Made by a program: the position numbers and the translations under genes. A stretch of DNA of 64,000 nucleotides. Origin: Patescibacteria group bacterium. GTDB taxonomy: Bacteria > Patescibacteriota > Patescibacteriia > Veblenbacterales > UBA10138. The stretch is taken from contig JBAZQK010000002.1 in NCBI GenBank assembly GCA_041645215.1, forward strand, positions 15,435 through 79,434, in the 5' to 3' direction. The notes beneath the pieces are model-generated. The model saw only the letters and a list, made by a program, of their open reading frames with translations, did not search any database and had not been told where the DNA came from. Shown here one piece after another: positions 2,995 to 62,012 of this stretch; the stretch's first letter is position 1, and each line of letters begins with the position of its first letter.

Positions 2995-3273
2995 ATGCTA
3001 TATTATAAACATATGAATGAGCTAGAGCGTGCTCTTAAAGCTATAGCCAACAGGCGTCGCCTAGCCCTGATAAAATATCTCAATTCTCGTCGTGAAGCAT
3101 CAGTGGGGGAATTGGCCGAGGCCATCAAGCTTTCACTTAAAGCCACATCTAAACACTTGGTTATTTTGCATAGCGCGAGCATTGTGGAGCGTGAGCAACG
3201 TTCCCTCCTCATGTACTACCGTCTGGCCGAGCCTCTTCCTAGACCAGTCAAATTCATTCTCTCTTATCTCTAA
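2995..3273 (+). CDS. ArsR/SmtB-family HTH transcriptional regulator
   Basis: wHTH segment VGELAEAIKLSLKATSKHLVILHSASIV; ~90 aa. Confidence 0.65.
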   Translation: MLYYKHMNELERALKAIANRRRLALIKYLNSRREASVGELAEAIKLSLKATSKHLVILHSASIVEREQRSLLMYYRLAEPLPRPVKFILSYL

Positions 3274-3295
3274 TTCGCGCGAATAGGCGAATAGT
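3268..3295. promoter_or_regulatory. Second copy of the 28-bp repeat with perfect palindrome ATTCGCGCGAAT, between the ArsR gene and the downstream IMPase gene
   Basis: Direct repeat of 2952-2979; overlaps the regulator's stop codon. Confidence 0.45.
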
Positions 3296-3338
3296 TTAAA
3301 CCGCCAAAAGAAAAACTATAAAACGACAATATAATTTT

Positions 3339-4154
3339 ATGATAAATTTTAGCAAGCGGACAAAATTTTTACTGGAACTCTCCAAAAAAGCCTGCCGGAT
3401 AATGCTGAAATATTATAATCCGTGCGGGGTTGGTTATGTCATAAAAAATAAGAGCAGCGATTGGGGATTGGACGCCGTAACCAAAGCTGACATGGAGGTA
3501 AATAAAATGGTTTTGCGGGAAATAGAAAAACATTATCCAACTTATGACTTGCTAGGGGAGGAGATTAGCTCTTTTAAAAAAGGCCAAAAGCTGTTCGTGG
3601 TTGACCCGATTGACGGCACGCATATGTTTATAATCGGCGCGCCGTTGTTTGTTTTCTCCGCCGCGGTGGTTATAAATGGTAAACCAGTGGCTGGTGTGCT
3701 GGCTAACCCCTTAGCCAAAAGAACCCTACTGGCAGAATTGGACGGGGGCGCTTATTTGGTAGAACGTAATATTAAATTATCAGTTAGCAACCAGAAAACA
3801 TTCAATGGCTCGCTAATTCGTACTGGCTGGAAGGATTGCACTGCCGCTAAACTCCTGCACCGGCAAAATGCCCGTACACCTGAAGTTTATGCTGTTTGTG
3901 AATCTGCCTCGCTAATAGCTACCGGCGGGTTTGACGGTGACATCTTTATGGGTAATGCCGCCCATGATATCGCGGCGGTTAAAATAGTGGTGGAAGAGGC
4001 TGGTGGTAGAGTGACCAATCTTTGGGGACAAGAGCAAAAATACGACCGCGGCATTAAGGGCGCTATTATTACTAATGGCCATTTGCATAAAAAGTTAGTG
4101 GCGCTGGTAAAACAATCCGGCCTGCTAAAAACTTTTCAACCAGCCGCTAAATAA
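3339..4154 (+). CDS. Inositol monophosphatase family protein (IMPase/SuhB-like)
   Basis: VVDPIDGT motif and C-terminal AHDIAAVKIVVEEAGG. Confidence 0.7.
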   Translation: MINFSKRTKFLLELSKKACRIMLKYYNPCGVGYVIKNKSSDWGLDAVTKADMEVNKMVLREIEKHYPTYDLLGEEISSFKKGQKLFVVDPIDGTHMFIIGAPLFVFSAAVVINGKPVAGVLANPLAKRTLLAELDGGAYLVERNIKLSVSNQKTFNGSLIRTGWKDCTAAKLLHRQNARTPEVYAVCESASLIATGGFDGDIFMGNAAHDIAAVKIVVEEAGGRVTNLWGQEQKYDRGIKGAIITNGHLHKKLVALVKQSGLLKTFQPAAK

Positions 4155-4158
4155 TATC

Positions 4159-4186
4159 ATTCCTACATTCTGCAGAATGTAGGAAT
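4159..4186. promoter_or_regulatory. 28-bp perfect palindrome ATTCCTACATTCTGCAGAATGTAGGAAT, candidate operator upstream of the second ArsR-family gene
   Basis: Perfect dyad; core ACATTCTGCAGAATGT shared with 4524-4545. Confidence 0.45.
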
Positions 4187-4212
4187 AAATAAAATAGTGA
4201 TACAATGTACCA

Positions 4213-4512
4213 ATGACCACAAAACTAAAAACCGCTGAACAAATGGAACGTCACTTTAAGGGTATGGCCAATCACTACCGCATTGCGATACTTCTTTTGA
4301 TTGATAAAGAAAGTGGAATTACCGTTGAAGCTATTACTGAACATCTTAAAGCAAACTTCAAAACCATTTCACAACACACTCGCTATCTTATGAATGCCGG
4401 ACTTATCAAAAAACAGTACCAAGGGAGAATGGTCGCACACTATTTGTCGCCCTATGGCAAACACTTTGTCAGATTCATTAAGAACTTTCAGCGTTTAGGT
4501 AGTAAATACTAA
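4213..4512 (+). CDS. ArsR-family HTH transcriptional regulator (second paralogue)
   Basis: HTH-like HYRIAILLLIDKESGITVEAITEHLKANFKTISQHTRYL. Confidence 0.55.
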   Translation: MTTKLKTAEQMERHFKGMANHYRIAILLLIDKESGITVEAITEHLKANFKTISQHTRYLMNAGLIKKQYQGRMVAHYLSPYGKHFVRFIKNFQRLGSKY

Positions 4513-4523
4513 CTAACAACATT

Positions 4524-4545
4524 CTAACATTCTGCAGAATGTTAG
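4524..4545. promoter_or_regulatory. 22-bp perfect palindrome CTAACATTCTGCAGAATGTTAG immediately downstream of the second ArsR gene
   Basis: Same 16-bp core as the upstream palindrome; preceded by tandem AACATTCT AACATTCT. Confidence 0.45.
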
Positions 4546-4709
4546 AGTGATTAAGATGATAAAGTTTCGTGCGCCCAAGCGTGCCATTAAAGGAAAAATT
4601 GTTGTTTTAATTTGACTAATCCATAAAAGCCTAAAAACGAGCTTTTATGGTAAATAAAGAGACTACCTGAAATTTAGGTAGTCCCTAAAAAATAAACAAT
4701 TCTTTTTTG

Positions 4710-5101: not shown

Positions 5102-5815
5102 ATGCCAAGGTTTAAAGATATATTAGCCTTGTTAATTTTACCGATTATTGTAGTCGGGGCTTACTTAATGGTGTATATTATCTGGCGAATGTTCAATCTG
5201 CCGACCAACGAAGCAGCCGCCAACCTGGTTATGGAAAAATTTTCGCAATACGGCTTATGGCTGGTGTTCGTGGGCGCTTTAATTGAAGGGTTTTTTGTAC
5301 TAGGTCAGTATTTTCCCGGAGGAGCGATTATATTCCTGGGGGTGATTTCCGCTGGTAAAGATATTCCCCGCGCTGCCGCGGTTGTCGGAGTGGTTTTTCT
5401 GGCGTTCGCGATTTCTTATACGCTTAATTATTTCCTGGGTAAATACGGCTGGTATAAGTTGTTTTTAAAATTCGGCTTGGGCAGTTCTCTGGCCACGGCT
5501 CAAAAAAAATTGATTAAGCAAGATACGGCGGCTATGTTTTTTAGCTACTGGGACCCGAACCTAGCCTCCCTGACCGCTACCGCGGCCGGCATTTTACAAA
5601 TACCTCTTAAACGCTTTGAAACTATATCTTTATTAAGTATAGCTTTTTGGAGTACGTTTTGGGGTATATTTGTTTACCAACTGGGTCAAAACGCCTTTAA
5701 AATAATGGGCTTAAAATATGTTCTAATAATCTTTGTTATTTGGTGCACAATCATTTTACTTAAACACTATCTTTACAGCAAAAATCGGCCTATAGTATCA
5801 ATTAATGAGCAATGA
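5102..5815 (+). CDS. DedA/SNARE-associated family membrane protein
   Basis: Multiple TM helices; motif GALIEGFFVLGQYFPGG resembling the DedA signature. Confidence 0.45.
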   Translation: MPRFKDILALLILPIIVVGAYLMVYIIWRMFNLPTNEAAANLVMEKFSQYGLWLVFVGALIEGFFVLGQYFPGGAIIFLGVISAGKDIPRAAAVVGVVFLAFAISYTLNYFLGKYGWYKLFLKFGLGSSLATAQKKLIKQDTAAMFFSYWDPNLASLTATAAGILQIPLKRFETISLLSIAFWSTFWGIFVYQLGQNAFKIMGLKYVLIIFVIWCTIILLKHYLYSKNRPIVSINEQ

Positions 5816-9174: not shown

Positions 9175-9833
9175 GCGCAATTTATTTTGACATTGGCGGA
9201 ACCTATGTTAGGACTGAAGTTATTAAAAATGGCCGAAGTTTATTTTATAAAAAAGTTCGTACAGCAAAAAATCGTATTAAATTTATTAGTCAACTAAAGA
9301 GCGTGATTAATAAGTTAGTTAAAAAATATAATTGTCAGCAAATTTGTTTTGGCGTGGCTGGTGTGGTTAGTGGTTCAAAGGTTATTTCTTGTGCTAATAT
9401 TAAATATTTAAGTAATTTTGATTTTAAAAAGATAGTTCCACCTCAAGTTAAAATTTTGGTGGATAATGACGCCCGAGCCTGGCTAAGTCAAATTGTGGTC
9501 AACAATCCGCAATTCCAAAATGGCACTATCTTAGGAATTACGGTCGGTACCGGTATCGGTCGGGCGGTGGCTCGGGATGGTAAAATTTTAAAAATAAAAA
9601 AGTTTGAACATCGGGAAAAATGGGAATCGGAATATCAACAGCGAAAATTTGAACCGAGTCCGAAATTAGCGCGTTGGTTTGCTGAAAAATTGCGGCCGAT
9701 TATCAATTTTTATAAACCTGATTTTATAGTCTTGGCTGGCGGTGTGATTGAGAAAAAACAGGGGTTTTATAGAGAGTTAGTAAATAGTCTAAGTAAAGGC
9801 AGTCCTAAGGTTAAAGTTGTTAAAGTGTTTTAG
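9171..9833 (+). CDS. ROK/BadF-type sugar kinase-like ATPase
   Basis: IYFDIGGTYVR N-terminal phosphate loop, VDNDARAW, GITVGTGIG. Confidence 0.45.
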   Translation: MSAIYFDIGGTYVRTEVIKNGRSLFYKKVRTAKNRIKFISQLKSVINKLVKKYNCQQICFGVAGVVSGSKVISCANIKYLSNFDFKKIVPPQVKILVDNDARAWLSQIVVNNPQFQNGTILGITVGTGIGRAVARDGKILKIKKFEHREKWESEYQQRKFEPSPKLARWFAEKLRPIINFYKPDFIVLAGGVIEKKQGFYRELVNSLSKGSPKVKVVKVF

Positions 9834-15484: not shown

Positions 15485-15630
15485 TCTTCCGATACCCGCC
15501 TAACCGCTCGTGCGCCTGCTCGGCCCACGGTCCCGCTAAGCGGGGCGGGCCGGCCAAGATCAGCCTAGGGCTGACAAGTGTTAAGGTGTTCAGGAGGATT
15601 AAGTATTCATGAAGCTTCAGACTTAAGCGC

Positions 15631-15660: not shown

Positions 15661-15725
15661 AGTTTGTTATCAAATTACCCCATTAGAACCTGTTTGTCGC
15701 CAATCCAAATTGGTACAGATAGTAA

Positions 15726-15890
15726 TAGGACTTACGCGCTGGCCGCTTGCCGGGCTGGCGGAGCCCGACCCCGCAAGCGGCTTTGGCCAATTTCTTCGTT
15801 AAAACCTCTGCTTGGCGTTCATCCCGCCAGGGCGGGACTCGCTCCAATGCTCGGTTTTGCCTCGAACTTGGCGCAAACGCGTAAGTCCTA
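15726..15890 (-). mobile_element. Structured MITE copy C (TAGGACTTACG TIR family), 165 bp, 5-bp TSD TTACT (plus-strand AGTAA at 15721-15725 and 15891-15895)
   Basis: 13-bp perfect TIR TAGGACTTACGCG/CGCGTAAGTCCTA; ~85-90% identical to copies at 27400-27565 and 53753-53919 with compensatory substitutions. Confidence 0.75.
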
Positions 15891-15903: not shown

Positions 15904-16377
15904 TTGTCAATTTATATGAGTAATCAGAGTTATATAACTAAACCAGGGTTGGACAAACTAGCACAAGAGCTAAAAGTGTTAAAAACTGATAAACGTAAAG
16001 CCATCGCCAGTCGTATCCAGGAAGCTAAAGAGTTGGGTGATTTATCGGAAAACGCCGAGTATGCTGAAGCAAAAAACGAACAGGCGTTTATTGAGGGCCG
16101 CATTATTGAGATTGAAAATTTGCTTAAGAACGCCATAATCATAAAGGCTGAAACCGGCAGTGAGGTGGTAAAAATTGGCTGTACGGTTATTTTTGATGGG
16201 CCCCACGGCGAAAAAAAATATACCATTGTCGGCTCCAACGAGGCCGACCCCAGCCGGGGTTTAATTTCTAACGAGTCGCCCATCGGCCAGGCTTTTTTGG
16301 GAAGTAAGGTGGGTGACACGGTTGAAGTAAAGTTACCCAAGGGCGTAGTTCACTATAGCGTAACAAGTATTAAATAG
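15904..16377 (+). CDS. greA: Transcription elongation factor GreA
   Basis: GreA coiled-coil and C-terminal FKBP-like domain; true start may be the ATG at 15916. Confidence 0.85.
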   Translation: MSIYMSNQSYITKPGLDKLAQELKVLKTDKRKAIASRIQEAKELGDLSENAEYAEAKNEQAFIEGRIIEIENLLKNAIIIKAETGSEVVKIGCTVIFDGPHGEKKYTIVGSNEADPSRGLISNESPIGQAFLGSKVGDTVEVKLPKGVVHYSVTSIK

Positions 16378-26434: not shown

Positions 26435-26562
26435 GCGGCGTTAATAAAACTTGGAAGCCGTAACGGCTTACTCCACCGTAGTCCTTAAAAAAGGTGAAGG
26501 AAGGCCGGAAGCTGTGGGGTATTATGGCGTAGTCCCGCAAAGCGGGACGAAGACGGATAAAT

Positions 26563-26767
26563 CCCGTTACATTTCCACGGGGTATTAGACGGACGCGGAA
26601 ATTGACCCCGTTAGAGATGCGGAACAAAGTGTAATTTGTAGGATGTTAATGTGTGCGGAGCGTATCTTACTATATGTTTCAGTACTGAGTGAATCTCTAA
26701 CGGGGTGAATCTGAATTTGCTGCGGTATCCCCGCGGCCAGACCGCGGGGTTTTTAAAATGTAACGGG
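26563..26767. mobile_element. Nested palindromic element (copy E2): outer TIR CCCGTTAC/GTAACGGG with flanking ATAAA(T/A); inner element 26606-26705 with TIR CCCCGTTAGAGAT/ATCTCTAACGGGG
   Basis: Seen directly; same architecture as 52174-52343. Confidence 0.55.
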
Positions 26768-26984
26768 ATAAAACTATCGTACATTTTGCGACACAAAGGA
26801 TGTTACCGGCAAAGTAGTTTGAGTGTGTAATAAATATTATTGACATAAAAATAATCATAATTGGCCGCAGAATTAAAAAATGAAGCCGGTGAGTTGGTAT
26901 AGTAATTGCATGTACCTGTGATTACTTATTACCGATTTTCCCAATTCAATTTACCAAACAGGATTTTATTATTCTCCAGTTATT

Positions 26985-27186
26985 CCCGCCTGCCTAAGCC
27001 TGTCTTAAGACAAGCGAAGTTAATAAAAAAGAAGATTTAAAACTAAATAATAAATAATCAATTATGCGAGGCATATGGCGGGCAGGCCCGCCTGCCTAAG
27101 CCTGTACAAAGTAAACGATGCTATTAAATAGAAAACTACAACACTAAATAATAATTATCGATTGCAAGAGGCCGATGGCGGGCAGG
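26985..27186 (+). repeat. Two tandem ~100-bp direct repeats, each beginning CCCGCCTGCCTAAGCCTGT and ending ATGGCGGGCAGG (complementary termini)
   Basis: Unit 1 26985-27086, unit 2 27087-27186; termini conserved, AT-rich interior diverged; terminus motif also at 50310-50323 (reverse). Confidence 0.65.
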
Positions 27187-27399
27187 TAAAAAATGGAAAA
27201 ATTATGCAGTTTTATGACGAAGTCATAGCTATCTTCATACCCCTGAAATCAACCTCGGGCCATATACGAGGTTGGTTTTTTGATAATATAAGGCCGCGGG
27301 GCTAATTTAAGTGTAACCCCGACAAATAAAGTGTCTGCTAATTATTACACAAAAAACTGTCCGGTTTTATAAAAAGCCACGACTTTATTGGTTTATAAT

Positions 27400-27565
27400 T
27401 AGGACTTACGGGTTTGAGCCAAGTTCGAGGCAAAACCGAGCATTTGAGCGAGCCGTAGTAAAACTACGGTGAGCGAAAAGCGGAGGTTTTAACAAAGAAA
27501 TTGGCCAAAGCCGCTTGAGGGGTCGGGCTGCGCCCGCCCTGCAAGCGGCAAGCCCGTAAGTCCTA
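27400..27565 (+). mobile_element. Structured MITE copy A (TAGGACTTACG TIR family), 166 bp, 5-bp TSD ATAAT (27395-27399 and 27566-27570)
   Basis: 13-bp perfect TIR TAGGACTTACGGG/CCCGTAAGTCCTA; internal hairpin CCGTAG/CTACGG covaries with CCCGCC/GGCGGG in copies B and C. Confidence 0.8.
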
Positions 27566-27717
27566 ATAATAACAAAAACATCAATTATAATGGGAGTAGC
27601 CGCTATTTAGGGATAATAAGAGTTTAAGCGGTATTTGCCTGATTTTAAAGACTATGTTAAACTGAGTATAATATCCCAAACGCTCAGTTATTTATACTAT
27701 AGACAAATATAGGTCAT

Positions 27718-33505: not shown

Positions 33506-33523
33506 AAAATAACTATAAGTTAA

Positions 33524-33545
33524 TAATAACGACTTACGCGTTTGT
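33524..33545. repeat. Solo terminal fragment of the TAGGACTTACG MITE family (CGACTTACGCGTTTG)
   Basis: 14/15 nt match to the 5-prime end of copy C. Confidence 0.4.
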
Positions 33546-33731
33546 CATCCTGCTTGCCCCGCCAACGGCGGTGGCTTGCCCCGCATTTGCGGAGGAACCA
33601 CAGTACTAGAAACTTCGTTTCAGTACATGGCAGGTTTATTTCAGGATCTCGGCATTGTTAAAAAATGCTTAGAAAGCCTTCATTTAGTATCAACCTCGGT
33701 AAATCCTGTATTAATAATAACAAACTGCGGT

Positions 33732-43487: not shown

Positions 43488-43560
43488 ATTGTTTCTTTAG
43501 GCTAGAGATTTGTTTATTTCACGCAATGTTTGCTGATATGAGAAGTAGTGAACGAAGCGA

Positions 43561-43634
43561 GGAAGGTTTTTTCCTGCGAGCGTTCATTCTTTTTTGAGGA
43601 AGGTTTTTTCCTGCGAGCGTTCATTCTTTTTTAA
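43561..43634. repeat. Tandem 37-bp repeat x2 (GGAAGGTTTTTTCCTGCGAGCGTTCATTCTTTTTT) forming imperfect hairpins
   Basis: Seen directly; second unit overlaps the 3-prime end of the minus-strand methyltransferase gene. Confidence 0.6.
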
Positions 43635-53724: not shown

Positions 53725-53752
53725 ATTTATAATAACAAAATATAATTATAAG

Positions 53753-53919
53753 TAGGACTTACGGGGTTGAGCCAAGTTCGAGGCAAAACCGAGCAAGTGG
53801 TACGAGTCCCGCCATGGCGGGATGAACGAAAAGCGGAGGTTTTAACGAAGAAATTAGCCAAAGCCGCTTGCGGGGTCGTCCCTGCGCCAGCCCTGCAAGC
53901 GGCAAGCGCGTAAGTCCTA
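53753..53919 (+). mobile_element. Structured MITE copy B (TAGGACTTACG TIR family), 167 bp, 5-bp TSD ATAAG (53748-53752 and 53920-53924)
   Basis: TIR TAGGACTTACG/CGTAAGTCCTA; internal hairpin CCCGCC/GGCGGG. Confidence 0.8.
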
Positions 53920-53930
53920 ATAAGATTAAT

Positions 53931-57011: not shown

Positions 57012-57028
57012 GGCAAACGGGTAAGTCC
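57012..57028. repeat. Terminal remnant of the TAGGACTTACG MITE family (GGGTAAGTCCTAAT) inside a 300-bp noncoding gap
   Basis: 14/15 match to the MITE 3-prime terminus; ORFs 56858-57133(-) and 56970-57170(+) here look spurious. Confidence 0.35.
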
Positions 57029-57166
57029 TAATGGAGACAAAATTATCTGTCTGATGTTGAAGTGTTTTAGTGATCCAGTGATTAATAGTTTATTATCCTT
57101 CGCCCCGCTTAGCCGGGCTTCGCTTAAAACCACTACCCTAACGCCCCCGGAGCATCATAACTTAAA

Positions 57167-58030: not shown

Positions 58031-58304
58031 AGCGGGATTATAGCAAAATGAAACATATTTACAACCCCGATGTAACCCGACGTAACATTGGGGTATCTGA
58101 TTTTCATTCTCCCAAGCTGTCCGCCCTCGTCCCGCTTAGCGGGACTTCCGCGGATTATGCTCCACGTCATTCATCCCCGCCGAATCGGCGGGGTATTCTA
58201 GCGAAAAATTCCGAGCTTGGCTAAGGGTTGACTTATTTAAATGTTGTGCTAAACTAGTACAAAATAAAAAAAGTATTATTTAAAACTGAATTAAGAGGCA
58301 AACC

Positions 58305-61284: not shown

Positions 61285-61320
61285 TTTATTTATATACCTC
61301 GGTCTCTCGATAACATATAT

Positions 61321-61497
61321 TCAAATCTGGGGGACATGGATTCTCCCTCGCTCCGACTCGGGCACCTGGGCGCTATGCACCATCCCGCCATAGCGGGACT
61401 CTCGCGCCCTTCGAATCCATTGTACTACCAATAGATATAAAAAAACAACAGACCAAGGCCTGATGCTTTTTTATGGCTGGGGGACATGGATCCCCGC
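61321..61497 (-). repeat. Two degenerate copies of the tRNA-Gln 3-prime end (CTGGGGGACATGGAT at 61327-61341 and 61483-61497) plus tRNA-like debris downstream of tRNA-Gln(CUG)
   Basis: 15-nt identity with the tRNA 3-prime end at 61698-61712; CATGATTACCGCGTC also recurs three times (61511, 61609, 61719). Confidence 0.6.
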
Positions 61498-61673
61498 CTA
61501 GCGGACGGGGTAAGTCAACTCATGATTACCGCGTCTCCCACACAAGGCTCGGGGGCTTGGATTCGAACCCCCGCAGTAGTCCCGCGGTGCGGGACACTAC
61601 GGGGCAAGCATGATTACCGCGTCCACCCCGCCACAGGCGGGGCAAGGCGCTCGCGTCCTATTCACCCCGCCAA

Positions 61674-62012
61674 TTATATCTGGCTTCTGTTAAAAACTGG
61701 GGGACATGGATTCGAACCATGATTACCGCGTCCAGAGCGCGGCGTCCTACCATTAGACGATCCCCCAGTTTTTAACAGAAACTTTTTAAAGGCGTTACCA
61801 CTATGCCAACTTTTAATTTGTTTTTCTCTTTGACGGGCATCTGTATAGCTTAAGTATTTTTCCGTATAAATCAAGTGCCATGGTCTAAATAATTTTGTCG
61901 ACGTAACTAAACCTTTATTATGTCTAGTTAAACGTAACTTGGGTTCTAACTTAGTTATTCCTATATAGTACCTACCAAAATTATTTCGTAGTATATATAA
62001 ATGACAAATCAT
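61674..62012 (-). CDS. Stand-alone small GIY-YIG nuclease (YhbQ-like); ORF has no stop before reading through the downstream tRNA-Gln
   Basis: YILRNNFGRYYIGITKLEPKLRLTRHNKG...RPWHLIYTEKY...REKQIKSW; domain ends ~61772, C-terminal 30 codons overlap the tRNA. Confidence 0.55.
   Translation of the reverse strand: MICHLYILRNNFGRYYIGITKLEPKLRLTRHNKGLVTSTKLFRPWHLIYTEKYLSYTDARQREKQIKSWHSGNAFKKFLLKTGGSSNGRTPRSGRGNHGSNPCPPVFNRSQI
61698..61767 (-). tRNA. tRNA-Gln (anticodon CUG), no encoded CCA; 13-bp leader/trailer helix
   Basis: Manual fold of reverse complement; anticodon stem CCGCG/CGCGG loop CTCTGGA; flanks TTCTGTTAAAAAC / GTTTTTAACAGAA complementary. Confidence 0.85.

Follow-up and report, generated by a model that had tools for sequence, protein, structure and literature searches.

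The stretch of DNA analyzed here, which we call the window, is 64 kb (64,000 nucleotides) of contig JBAZQK010000002.1 from a Patescibacteria group bacterium, and contains three full copies of a short, non-coding element with inverted-repeat ends (copies A, B and C; Table 1). Copy A has the orientation of the flanking + strand genes. Copy B is antisense to both of its neighbors, which are - strand genes, and lies 11 nt past the stop codon of a beta-CASP RNase gene and 28 nt ahead of the start of an SLT-domain gene. Copy C, also antisense, is located between the + strand genes for PBP2 and greA, 25 nt ahead of the greA ATG at 15916. Here, we describe this element as a previously undescribed family of miniature inverted-repeat transposable elements (MITEs), of a known kind but new for the bacteria of the candidate phyla radiation (CPR, or Patescibacteria). 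The element is mobile between near-identical strains, inserts into AT-rich intergenic DNA while duplicating 5 bp, and has an interior that is under structural selection. We consider it probable that it is mobilized in trans, and that its interior fold acts in cis as an RNA of the + strand.

The element and its distribution

An original prediction, made from the letters of the window, had described the three copies as members of one transposon-like family. All three were recovered at the coordinates that it gave, with pairwise identities (A-B 83.3%, A-C 83.9% and B-C 89.2%) that are slightly lower than the 85-90% it had estimated. The predicted perfect inverted-repeat ends hold for each copy: they are 11-13 bp long and start with TAGGACTTACG, a string that has six exact matches in the window, all of them at the six element termini. 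With one mismatch allowed, there are eight matches (the extra ones at 9532 and 57020), a number that none of 100 dinucleotide shuffles reaches (mean 0.6). Likewise, each copy is bordered by its own perfect 5-bp direct repeat. A covariance model of the family finds the three copies with E-values of 1e-33 to 1e-49 and, when scanned over the window, no full copy beyond these. The coding capacity of the element consists only of two open reading frames (ORFs) of 31 aa with TTG starts, which overlap it on the - strand.

Beyond the window, about 70 further copies were found in CPR genomes or on groundwater metagenome contigs. A search with a 23-mer from the core of the element, using one genome per species, resulted in 6 loci, all in metagenome-assembled genomes (MAGs) of CPR bacteria: Doudnabacteria, Yanofskybacteria, Kerfeldbacteria (2 loci) and an unclassified Patescibacteria bin (2 loci). 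A core 20-mer matched 60 metagenome loci, mostly on groundwater contigs, and the names of the groundwater datasets with copies point to several regions. Two to three seed matches occur on single contigs of 20-190 kb, and several contigs are multi-copy. The density is three copies in the 64-kb window, and roughly one per 20-50 kb.

Outside these sources, the searches were negative. The core 20-mer has no match in IMG/VR, and blastn in 'distant' mode gave none among known plasmid and phage sequences. The 14-nt terminus has 12 single, unpaired matches in viral contigs, none of them with a nearby inverted partner, which is consistent with chance. An Rfam scan of the window at gathering thresholds returned nothing for the element, and a scan of the element itself at E-values up to 10 returned only noise. 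A literature search with literal sequence strings of the element found no match, and a full-text search found no description of a MITE in CPR bacteria or Patescibacteria.

Evidence for mobility

The claim that this is a transposed DNA element is borne out by the flanks across the family and by an empty site. Perfect 5-bp duplications border 30 of the 51 unique copies (counted as element plus flanks), compared with about 0.26 expected by chance (0.005 per site, calculated from flank composition). The duplicated pentamers are nearly all different and all AT-rich, and the terminal inverted repeat extends to 13-17 nt across the family. Among the unique copies without a perfect 5-mer, several have 4-bp or 6-bp repeats or chimeric-looking flanks; three of the related loci (L017, L024 and L064) have a common right flank and different left flanks, which makes these metagenome contigs look chimeric at the repeat.

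Empty sites were expected to restore a single 5-bp target, and this was found for copy C in two near-identical strains, ERZ27249422 (L067) and ERZ27247322 (L077). Their contigs were identified through an identical GreA protein and through a 90%-cluster relative of the neighboring LysRS. In both of these independent assemblies, the site contains a single AGTCA and no element: the sequence is ...CAGATAGTCATTAAAC..., compared with ...CAGATAGTAA[165 bp]AGTAATTAAAC... in the window. The spacer between the PBP2 gene and greA is therefore 170 bp shorter, which is exactly one element plus one 5-mer, with one single-nucleotide difference within the pentamer. Copy B is present in the same sister strain (L070), so that occupancy varies from one site to the next. 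Identical insertions were also recovered in independent assemblies. The contigs of sister strains are broken within copy A, and more distant relatives lack it; a clean empty site is not available here because about 1 kb of upstream DNA is non-homologous in the relatives.

This upstream DNA (26435-27399) is approximately 1 kb that follows ftsQ, with no ORF of at least 100 aa and no Rfam match above noise. In related strains, what follows ftsQ is non-homologous: L074 has about 2.1 kb at this place, including a 176-aa ORF without a Pfam match; two short assemblies (L072 and L073) end about 130-150 nt past ftsQ. The region may be a variable or recombination-prone spot.

A covarying fold with a near-invariant core

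In the fold of the element, the inverted repeats pair as a closing helix (P1) from which two arms extend: P2, which is long and irregular (positions 15-109 of copy A), and P3, which is GC-rich (positions 111-150). An alignment made with MAFFT alone gave RNAalifold only a partial fold, as hairpin 2 (within P2) and P3 were misaligned, and it was replaced by a model-guided alignment. For this, a covariance model (R1) was built from 39 typical copies with the structure of copy A, and 70 matches from all loci, 61 of them distinct, were re-aligned to it.

The original prediction had placed the interior under structural selection and had expected homologs to show an excess of covariation, which the 61 distinct sequences do. 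In the R1 alignment, 93.2% of the cells form standard pairs, versus 31-42% in controls with the 3' partners shifted by 1-3 columns. Changes on both sides of a pair occur in 43 of the 64 pairs, and none of 500 column shuffles reaches any of five measures, in counts that are to be read with the alignment being fitted to the model, the cells not being independent events and many copies being module mosaics. Double changes were seen in 11 of the 14 pairs of P1 (helix 1). In hairpin 2 (helix 7), which had been predicted to change its sequence while staying paired, they affect 7 of the 8 pairs at 97.5% pairing. Its stem occurs as CCGTAG/CTACGG, CTGTAG/CTACAG, CCATAG/CTATGG, CCATAA/TTATGG, GCGCAG/(C/T)TGCG, TCATAT/ATATGA and CCCGCC/GGCGGG. 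A similar claim for the third hairpin stands for the lower stem of P3 (helix 8), with double changes in 11 of 12 pairs, and fails for the tip, where 1 of 5 pairs has compensatory support. The covarying position of the closing helix, given as position 10 in the prediction, is actually position 12. Copy B is mismatched there (G opposite G), and its perfect repeat is therefore 11 nt.

The core helices covary in the most divergent copies: AAAACC/GGTTTT becomes AAAATC/GATTTT, GCCAA/TTGGC becomes GTCAA/TTGAC, and TTC/GAA becomes ATT/AAT. P2 contains two near-invariant blocks, cAAGuUcGAGGCAAAAccGAGcAU and AAgcggAGgUUUUAACGAAgAaaUUgg. About 50 near-invariant nucleotides of this arm sit in purine-rich, symmetric internal loops, which are held by the helices with compensatory changes. 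Both blocks persist in seven loci (L002, L005, L006, L008, L014, L034 and L063) in which the closing helix and the P3 arm are too divergent to be aligned easily. In two subfamilies (L015 and L023), the tandem G-A/A-G mismatch of typical copies is replaced by Watson-Crick pairs (UUUGACC/GGUCAAA). Such conservation of the core is unusual: an ordinary MITE keeps its ends and its middle drifts, whereas here two inner blocks are near-invariant.

Some features of the fold would favor the + strand. In the pair that closes hairpin 2 at its base, 47 copies have G-U, 9 have G-C and 5 have A-U, and none is unpaired; the junction pair is U-G in 40 copies and U-A in 8. In each of the 52 unique copies, the + strand RNA is predicted to have the more stable fold, with a mean advantage of 10.7 kcal/mol over the - strand RNA.

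Table 1. Positions of the element copies, their parts and terminus-sharing relatives in the window
Feature	Position	Strand	Remarks
Copy A, full element, 166 bp	27400..27565	+	covariance model 201.8 bits; fold -93.4 kcal/mol, z -9.75
Copy A, left target-site duplication ATAAT	27395..27399
Copy A, right target-site duplication ATAAT	27566..27570
Copy A, left terminal inverted repeat = 5' half of P1, TAGGACTTACGGGT	27400..27413	+
Copy A, right terminal inverted repeat = 3' half of P1, GCCCGTAAGTCCTA	27552..27565	+
P2 long arm, irregular hairpin with both core blocks and variable hairpin 2	27414..27508	+
Core block 1, CCAAGTTCGAGGCAAAACCGAGCAT	27419..27443	+	mostly fixed by the search seed; its partner block is not
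Hairpin 2, GCCGTAGT-AAA-ACTACGGT	27452..27470	+	stem sequence free to vary, pairing kept
Core block 2, AAGCGGAGGTTTTAACAAAGAAATTGG	27478..27504	+	near-invariant, not used as search seed
P3 arm, GC-rich hairpin	27510..27549	+	most variable and modular part
Copy B, full element, 167 bp	53753..53919	+	covariance model 139.4 bits
Copy B, left target-site duplication ATAAG	53748..53752
Copy B, right target-site duplication ATAAG	53920..53924
Copy C, full element, 165 bp	15726..15890	-	covariance model 175.1 bits
Copy C, target-site duplication AGTAA (+ strand; TTACT on the element strand)	15721..15725
Copy C, second target-site duplication AGTAA	15891..15895
Decayed terminus-sharing relative, GACTTACGCGTTTG-TCATCCTG... 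as in the 142-bp family	33531..33710	+	no longer folds back (z -2.4)
Solo right terminus GGCAAACGGGTAAGTCCTA	57012..57030	+	intergenic; no interior of the 166-bp family adjoining

Shared termini and a second family

The related loci contain a second MITE family of about 142 bp, which surfaced as weak palindromic matches of the covariance model. Its full copies (L025:40-181, L036:9031-9172, L013:9745-9885 and L050:12312-12459) have the same TAGGACTTACGCG...CGCGTAAGTCCTA termini, an unrelated interior and, in three of the four, perfect 5-bp duplications. Several solo ends in the related loci also carry these termini. One pair of ends on two unrelated interiors is typical of MITEs and indicates that the termini are the recognition module of a transposase acting in trans, presumably of the DDE type and making 5-bp staggered cuts. 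The original prediction had left it open whether the element is a MITE mobilized in trans or a dispersed family of non-coding RNA genes; the shared termini of the 142-bp family favor the former.

The two sequences that had been described as remnants of the 166-bp family do exist, but are not decayed copies of it, as their extended termini match the other terminus-sharing family. In the first, GACTTACGCGTTTG at 33531-33544 runs on into ...GTTTG-TCATCCTG as in the 142-bp family. The second has GCAAACGGGTAAGTCCTA at 57013-57030.

A perfect 11-bp direct repeat, TTAATAATAAC (33520-33530 and 33711-33721), brackets the decayed element at 33531-33710, the left end of which is without the initial TAG. 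Elsewhere, a partial copy of the 142-bp family ends at L013:11982, and a mini-element of about 90 nt (L038:2692-2785, TAGGAGTTACGGGTTTGAGCCGAATTCGACC...CCCGTAAGTAG) retains little more than the termini and the initial bases of the core. The hairpin 2 loop of some copies of the 166-bp family holds a nested palindromic repeat of about 150 nt, CCCCGTTACACCC...GGGTGTAACGGGG, as seen in L057 (around 5400-5550), L064 (around 3110-3400, with two inserts) and L061 (around 650-850). These nested insertions indicate that at least three repeat families have been active in these genomes.

Neighboring genes

The divergent, apparently older copies are in sense orientation and end 0-7 nt ahead of genuine start codons. 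The N-termini of the downstream proteins are those of DnaK (MAKVLGIDLGTTN, L005), a TypA-like GTPase (MEIRNIAIIAHVDHGKTT, L014), TsaD (MKILGIETSCDETA, L034) and an HU-like protein (L007).

Core block 2 contains GGAGG, which is unlikely to function as a ribosome-binding site, since there is no start codon at a usable spacing and the host rarely uses such sites. A Shine-Dalgarno-like motif (GGAG, GAGG or AGGA) is located upstream of 8 of the 56 genes of the window, versus 8% in random 17-mers, so that translation initiation in this organism is essentially Shine-Dalgarno-independent. A functional tie between the element and the LAGLIDADG/tyrosine-recombinase genes downstream of copy A was rejected: three related strains carry the gene pair without the element, and the proximity is thus coincidental.

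How the interior fold might be used

Based on the fixed G-U positions, on the predicted stabilities and on the Watson-Crick replacement of the tandem mismatch in L015 and L023, we infer with moderate confidence that the interior fold is used as an RNA of the + strand. In our preferred reading, a MITE mobilized in trans would be co-transcribed with the neighboring genes, and its + strand fold would thereby act in cis as a module that binds a protein or affects processing, stability or translation. Selection would usually remove copies that land in sense inside operons, in line with young copies being mostly antisense (see below). Now and then, a sense copy would be retained as the leader of a gene, in agreement with the old sense copies immediately ahead of the start codons of dnaK and of the typA-like, tsaD and HU genes. 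A bolder version of this idea, which we hold to be unlikely, is that P2, the arm of about 90 nt with purine-rich and near-invariant internal loops, is a new functional RNA (a protein-binding platform, or a small ribozyme- or aptamer-like fold). The MITE would be its vehicle; the RNA would have spread horizontally across class-level lineages of CPR bacteria and would repeatedly have been domesticated as the 5' leader of the same four genes.

Several observations weigh against a role as cis-acting RNA on a trans-mobilized MITE. The cognate transposase was found in none of the places searched, and may lie elsewhere. In keeping with the original prediction, Pfam detected no transposase domain in the named ORFs of the window, among them every ORF of at least 200 aa; about 0.55 Mb of related loci contain no terminus pairs 0.4-6 kb apart that could delimit a longer element; and gene calls for about 20 kb of sister-strain DNA flanking the window include no transposase, nor did the covariance model find a further copy there. 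Presence/absence polymorphism means that single copies are dispensable, and the covariation of P1 is not evidence for RNA, since it is expected for any inverted repeat pair that is bound by one transposase. Further points of this kind would suit a purely selfish MITE, with a fold and invariant loops that serve transposition at the DNA level, a reading that we regard as possible but rather unlikely. Outside the three fixed G-U positions, sporadic mismatches amount to 62 A-C and 38 G-U cells, and so show no + strand preference, as if the pairing were read as DNA. Copies between co-directional genes are antisense in 25 cases and sense in 7 (by crude ORF calls), so that read-through RNA would usually be of the other strand, and it is the young copies that are mostly antisense to transcription. 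Scanning the element for consensus promoters and terminators revealed none. At the DNA level, the fold could be a foldback, a cruciform or a single-stranded DNA intermediate, could pair the ends, or could offer subterminal sites to the transposase or to a host DNA-bending protein, with the conservation being that of transposition-competent masters. As only still-transposing lineages leave descendants, whatever the subfamilies have conserved should be what transposition requires. The orientation bias could result from a replication-coupled, strand-asymmetric step, the gene-strand and GC-skew polarity of the window being strong. However, the approximately 50 invariant loop nucleotides are not needed for a DNA foldback, and the 142-bp family moves with the same termini and another interior, meaning that the core of the 166-bp family is not required by that transposase. 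The alternation of fixed positions only among G-U, G-C and A-U, and the higher stability of the + strand RNA in every unique copy, point to RNA instead. Moreover, divergent copies without recognizable duplications keep the core at fixed positions beside start codons. The predicted G-T wobble in favor of one strand holds only in part: it is upheld by the fixed G-U positions and by the fold stability, and not by the sporadic G-U and A-C counts or by the mostly antisense copies.

Dispersed, stand-alone small RNA genes, i.e. a trans-acting non-coding RNA of about 165 nt that has its own promoter and is spread by transposition, would explain the strong covariation and the conserved core. Orientation mostly opposite to the neighbors is common for independent small RNA genes, and a promoter-like site (TTTAAA-17-TATAAT) ends 20 nt upstream of the 5' end of copy B. 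Yet no promoter travels along with the element and the upstream flanks differ at every site, and the lack of a terminator in the consensus scan and of an Rfam match even at E-values up to 10 also counts against such genes. In addition, copy number differs between sister strains, and copies within one genome differ by 11-17% and are module mosaics, unlike a dosage-selected RNA gene. Taken together, this makes stand-alone genes quite improbable. Chance similarity or an assembly artifact might be considered because some metagenome flank combinations look chimeric at the repeat (L017, L024 and L064). The probability of this is negligible given the covariance-model E-values, the identical insertions in independent assemblies, and the recovery of copies from groundwater datasets of several regions by name.

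Comparison with known elements

The element has most of the characteristics of a MITE: it is non-coding and shorter than 400 bp, has terminal inverted repeats and variable 5-bp duplications, is dispersed in multiple copies, and has a precise empty site. A cognate autonomous element or transposase is the feature that was not found in the sequences searched, and it is missing for bcr1 too. The bcr1 elements (group A repeats of the Bacillus cereus group) are non-coding, approximately 155 bp long, and have short inverted repeats and 5-bp direct repeats; they are transcribed, their positions are not conserved between close strains, compensatory changes keep a two-arm, 'cruciform-like' fold, and no transposase has been identified (PMC3184786, which summarizes the work of Okstad 2004, Klevan 2007 and Kristoffersen 2011). 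They are the closest precedent, with a similar size, duplication length and two-arm covarying fold, and MITEs with compensatory changes are thus already known. The host phylum of bcr1 is unrelated, and the two were compared by description rather than by sequence. Since all matches to our element come from Patescibacteria MAGs or groundwater metagenome contigs, we treat it as an analog of bcr1 and not as a member. Moreover, bcr1 duplicates a preferred TTTAT, whereas the pentamers duplicated here are varied and AT-rich, and bcr1 has repeatedly lost stability, whereas the present core is near-invariant across class-level lineages of CPR bacteria.

The Correia/NEMIS elements of Neisseria are likewise intergenic MITEs of 100-160 bp that form long hairpins when co-transcribed and alter the expression of neighboring genes. 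Promoter, RNase III and IHF roles are known for Correia elements. By analogy, our element may work in a similar manner. It differs from them in that they have 26-bp inverted repeats, a TA duplication, an interior that is not reported to covary, and no sequence relation to it.

Tn3-derived miniature elements (TIMEs) and IMU have 5-bp duplications and are mobilized in trans via matching termini, with different interiors on one terminus (PMC4133298; PMC3184786). Our element resembles them in its 5-bp duplication and in having different interiors that share termini. Tn3-family termini are about 38 bp long and start with GGGG, whereas those described here are 13-17 bp long, start with TAGGAC, and lose complementarity beyond that length; among the window ORFs scanned, no Tn3-type transposase was found.

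More distant parallels can be drawn with other repeats. ERIC/IRU, RUP, RPE and YPAL-type repeats are dispersed, intergenic, imperfect palindromes of 100-170 bp that are often transcribed and affect mRNA stability, but they have other hosts and sequences, and most are without clear duplications or documented covariation of internal helices. REP/BIME-RAYT and IS200/IS605-derived palindromes are also mobile or repeated sequences that depend on structure and whose orientation is biased with respect to replication or transcription. Unlike our element, they are 20-40 bp hairpins or lack inverted repeats and duplications, and insert beside a fixed tetra- or pentanucleotide; membership in these groups was rejected for a 166-bp element with inverted repeats and variable 5-bp duplications. 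Eukaryotic SINEs (derived from tRNA, 7SL or 5S RNA) are comparable as non-autonomous mobile elements with a conserved structured-RNA body, but they transpose through an RNA that is reverse-transcribed, lack inverted repeats, and make duplications of variable length. In Rfam, no parent RNA was found for the core of our element.

Significance for CPR bacteria

CPR bacteria have streamlined genomes of about 1 Mb and, to our knowledge, are rarely discussed as hosts of active transposable elements. Here, one element family is common to Doudnabacteria, Yanofskybacteria, Kerfeldbacteria and unclassified Patescibacteria. It can be used as a strain-level marker and is a recurrent cause of contig breaks in CPR assemblies. 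Its termini offer a handle for tracing the transposase, and its interior a well-supported covariance model of a structured module that is conserved beyond what transposase sites need. If the fold indeed works as RNA, it would be among the very few candidate regulatory RNAs of the uncultivated CPR radiation. If it were in addition a new functional RNA, it would provide 5' leaders in organisms whose genes are seldom preceded by Shine-Dalgarno sequences (8 of 56 genes).

Other repeats in the window

Several other repeats were observed in the window. Small GC-rich hairpins with the pattern (G)TCCCGC-NNNN-GCGGGA(C) or CCCGCCGAATCGGCGGG are repeated between genes, at 228-252 and 58168-58192, at 26531-26557 and 58120-58146, around 15530-15550, and in flanks within L065 and L025; these may be a REP-like family. 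Two 49-nt palindromes centered on CATTCTGCAGAATG (4147-4195 and 4509-4557) are 78% identical, lie 362 nt apart, and were also scored as generic hairpins by the covariance model. Two tRNA-Gln genes (anticodons TTG and CTG; 1282-1410 and 61697-61788) are inverted relative to each other, 60 kb apart, and share a 23-nt perfect inverted flank. Beside the second of these, three to four repeated fragments (CTGGGGGACATGGATTC and CATGATTACCGCGTC) occupy 61320-61734. Finally, 43559-43632 is a perfect tandem duplication of a 37-nt unit, positioned where the + strand genes on the left meet the - strand genes on the right, and near the peak of the cumulative GC skew (around 44 kb); this site may be a replication terminus region.

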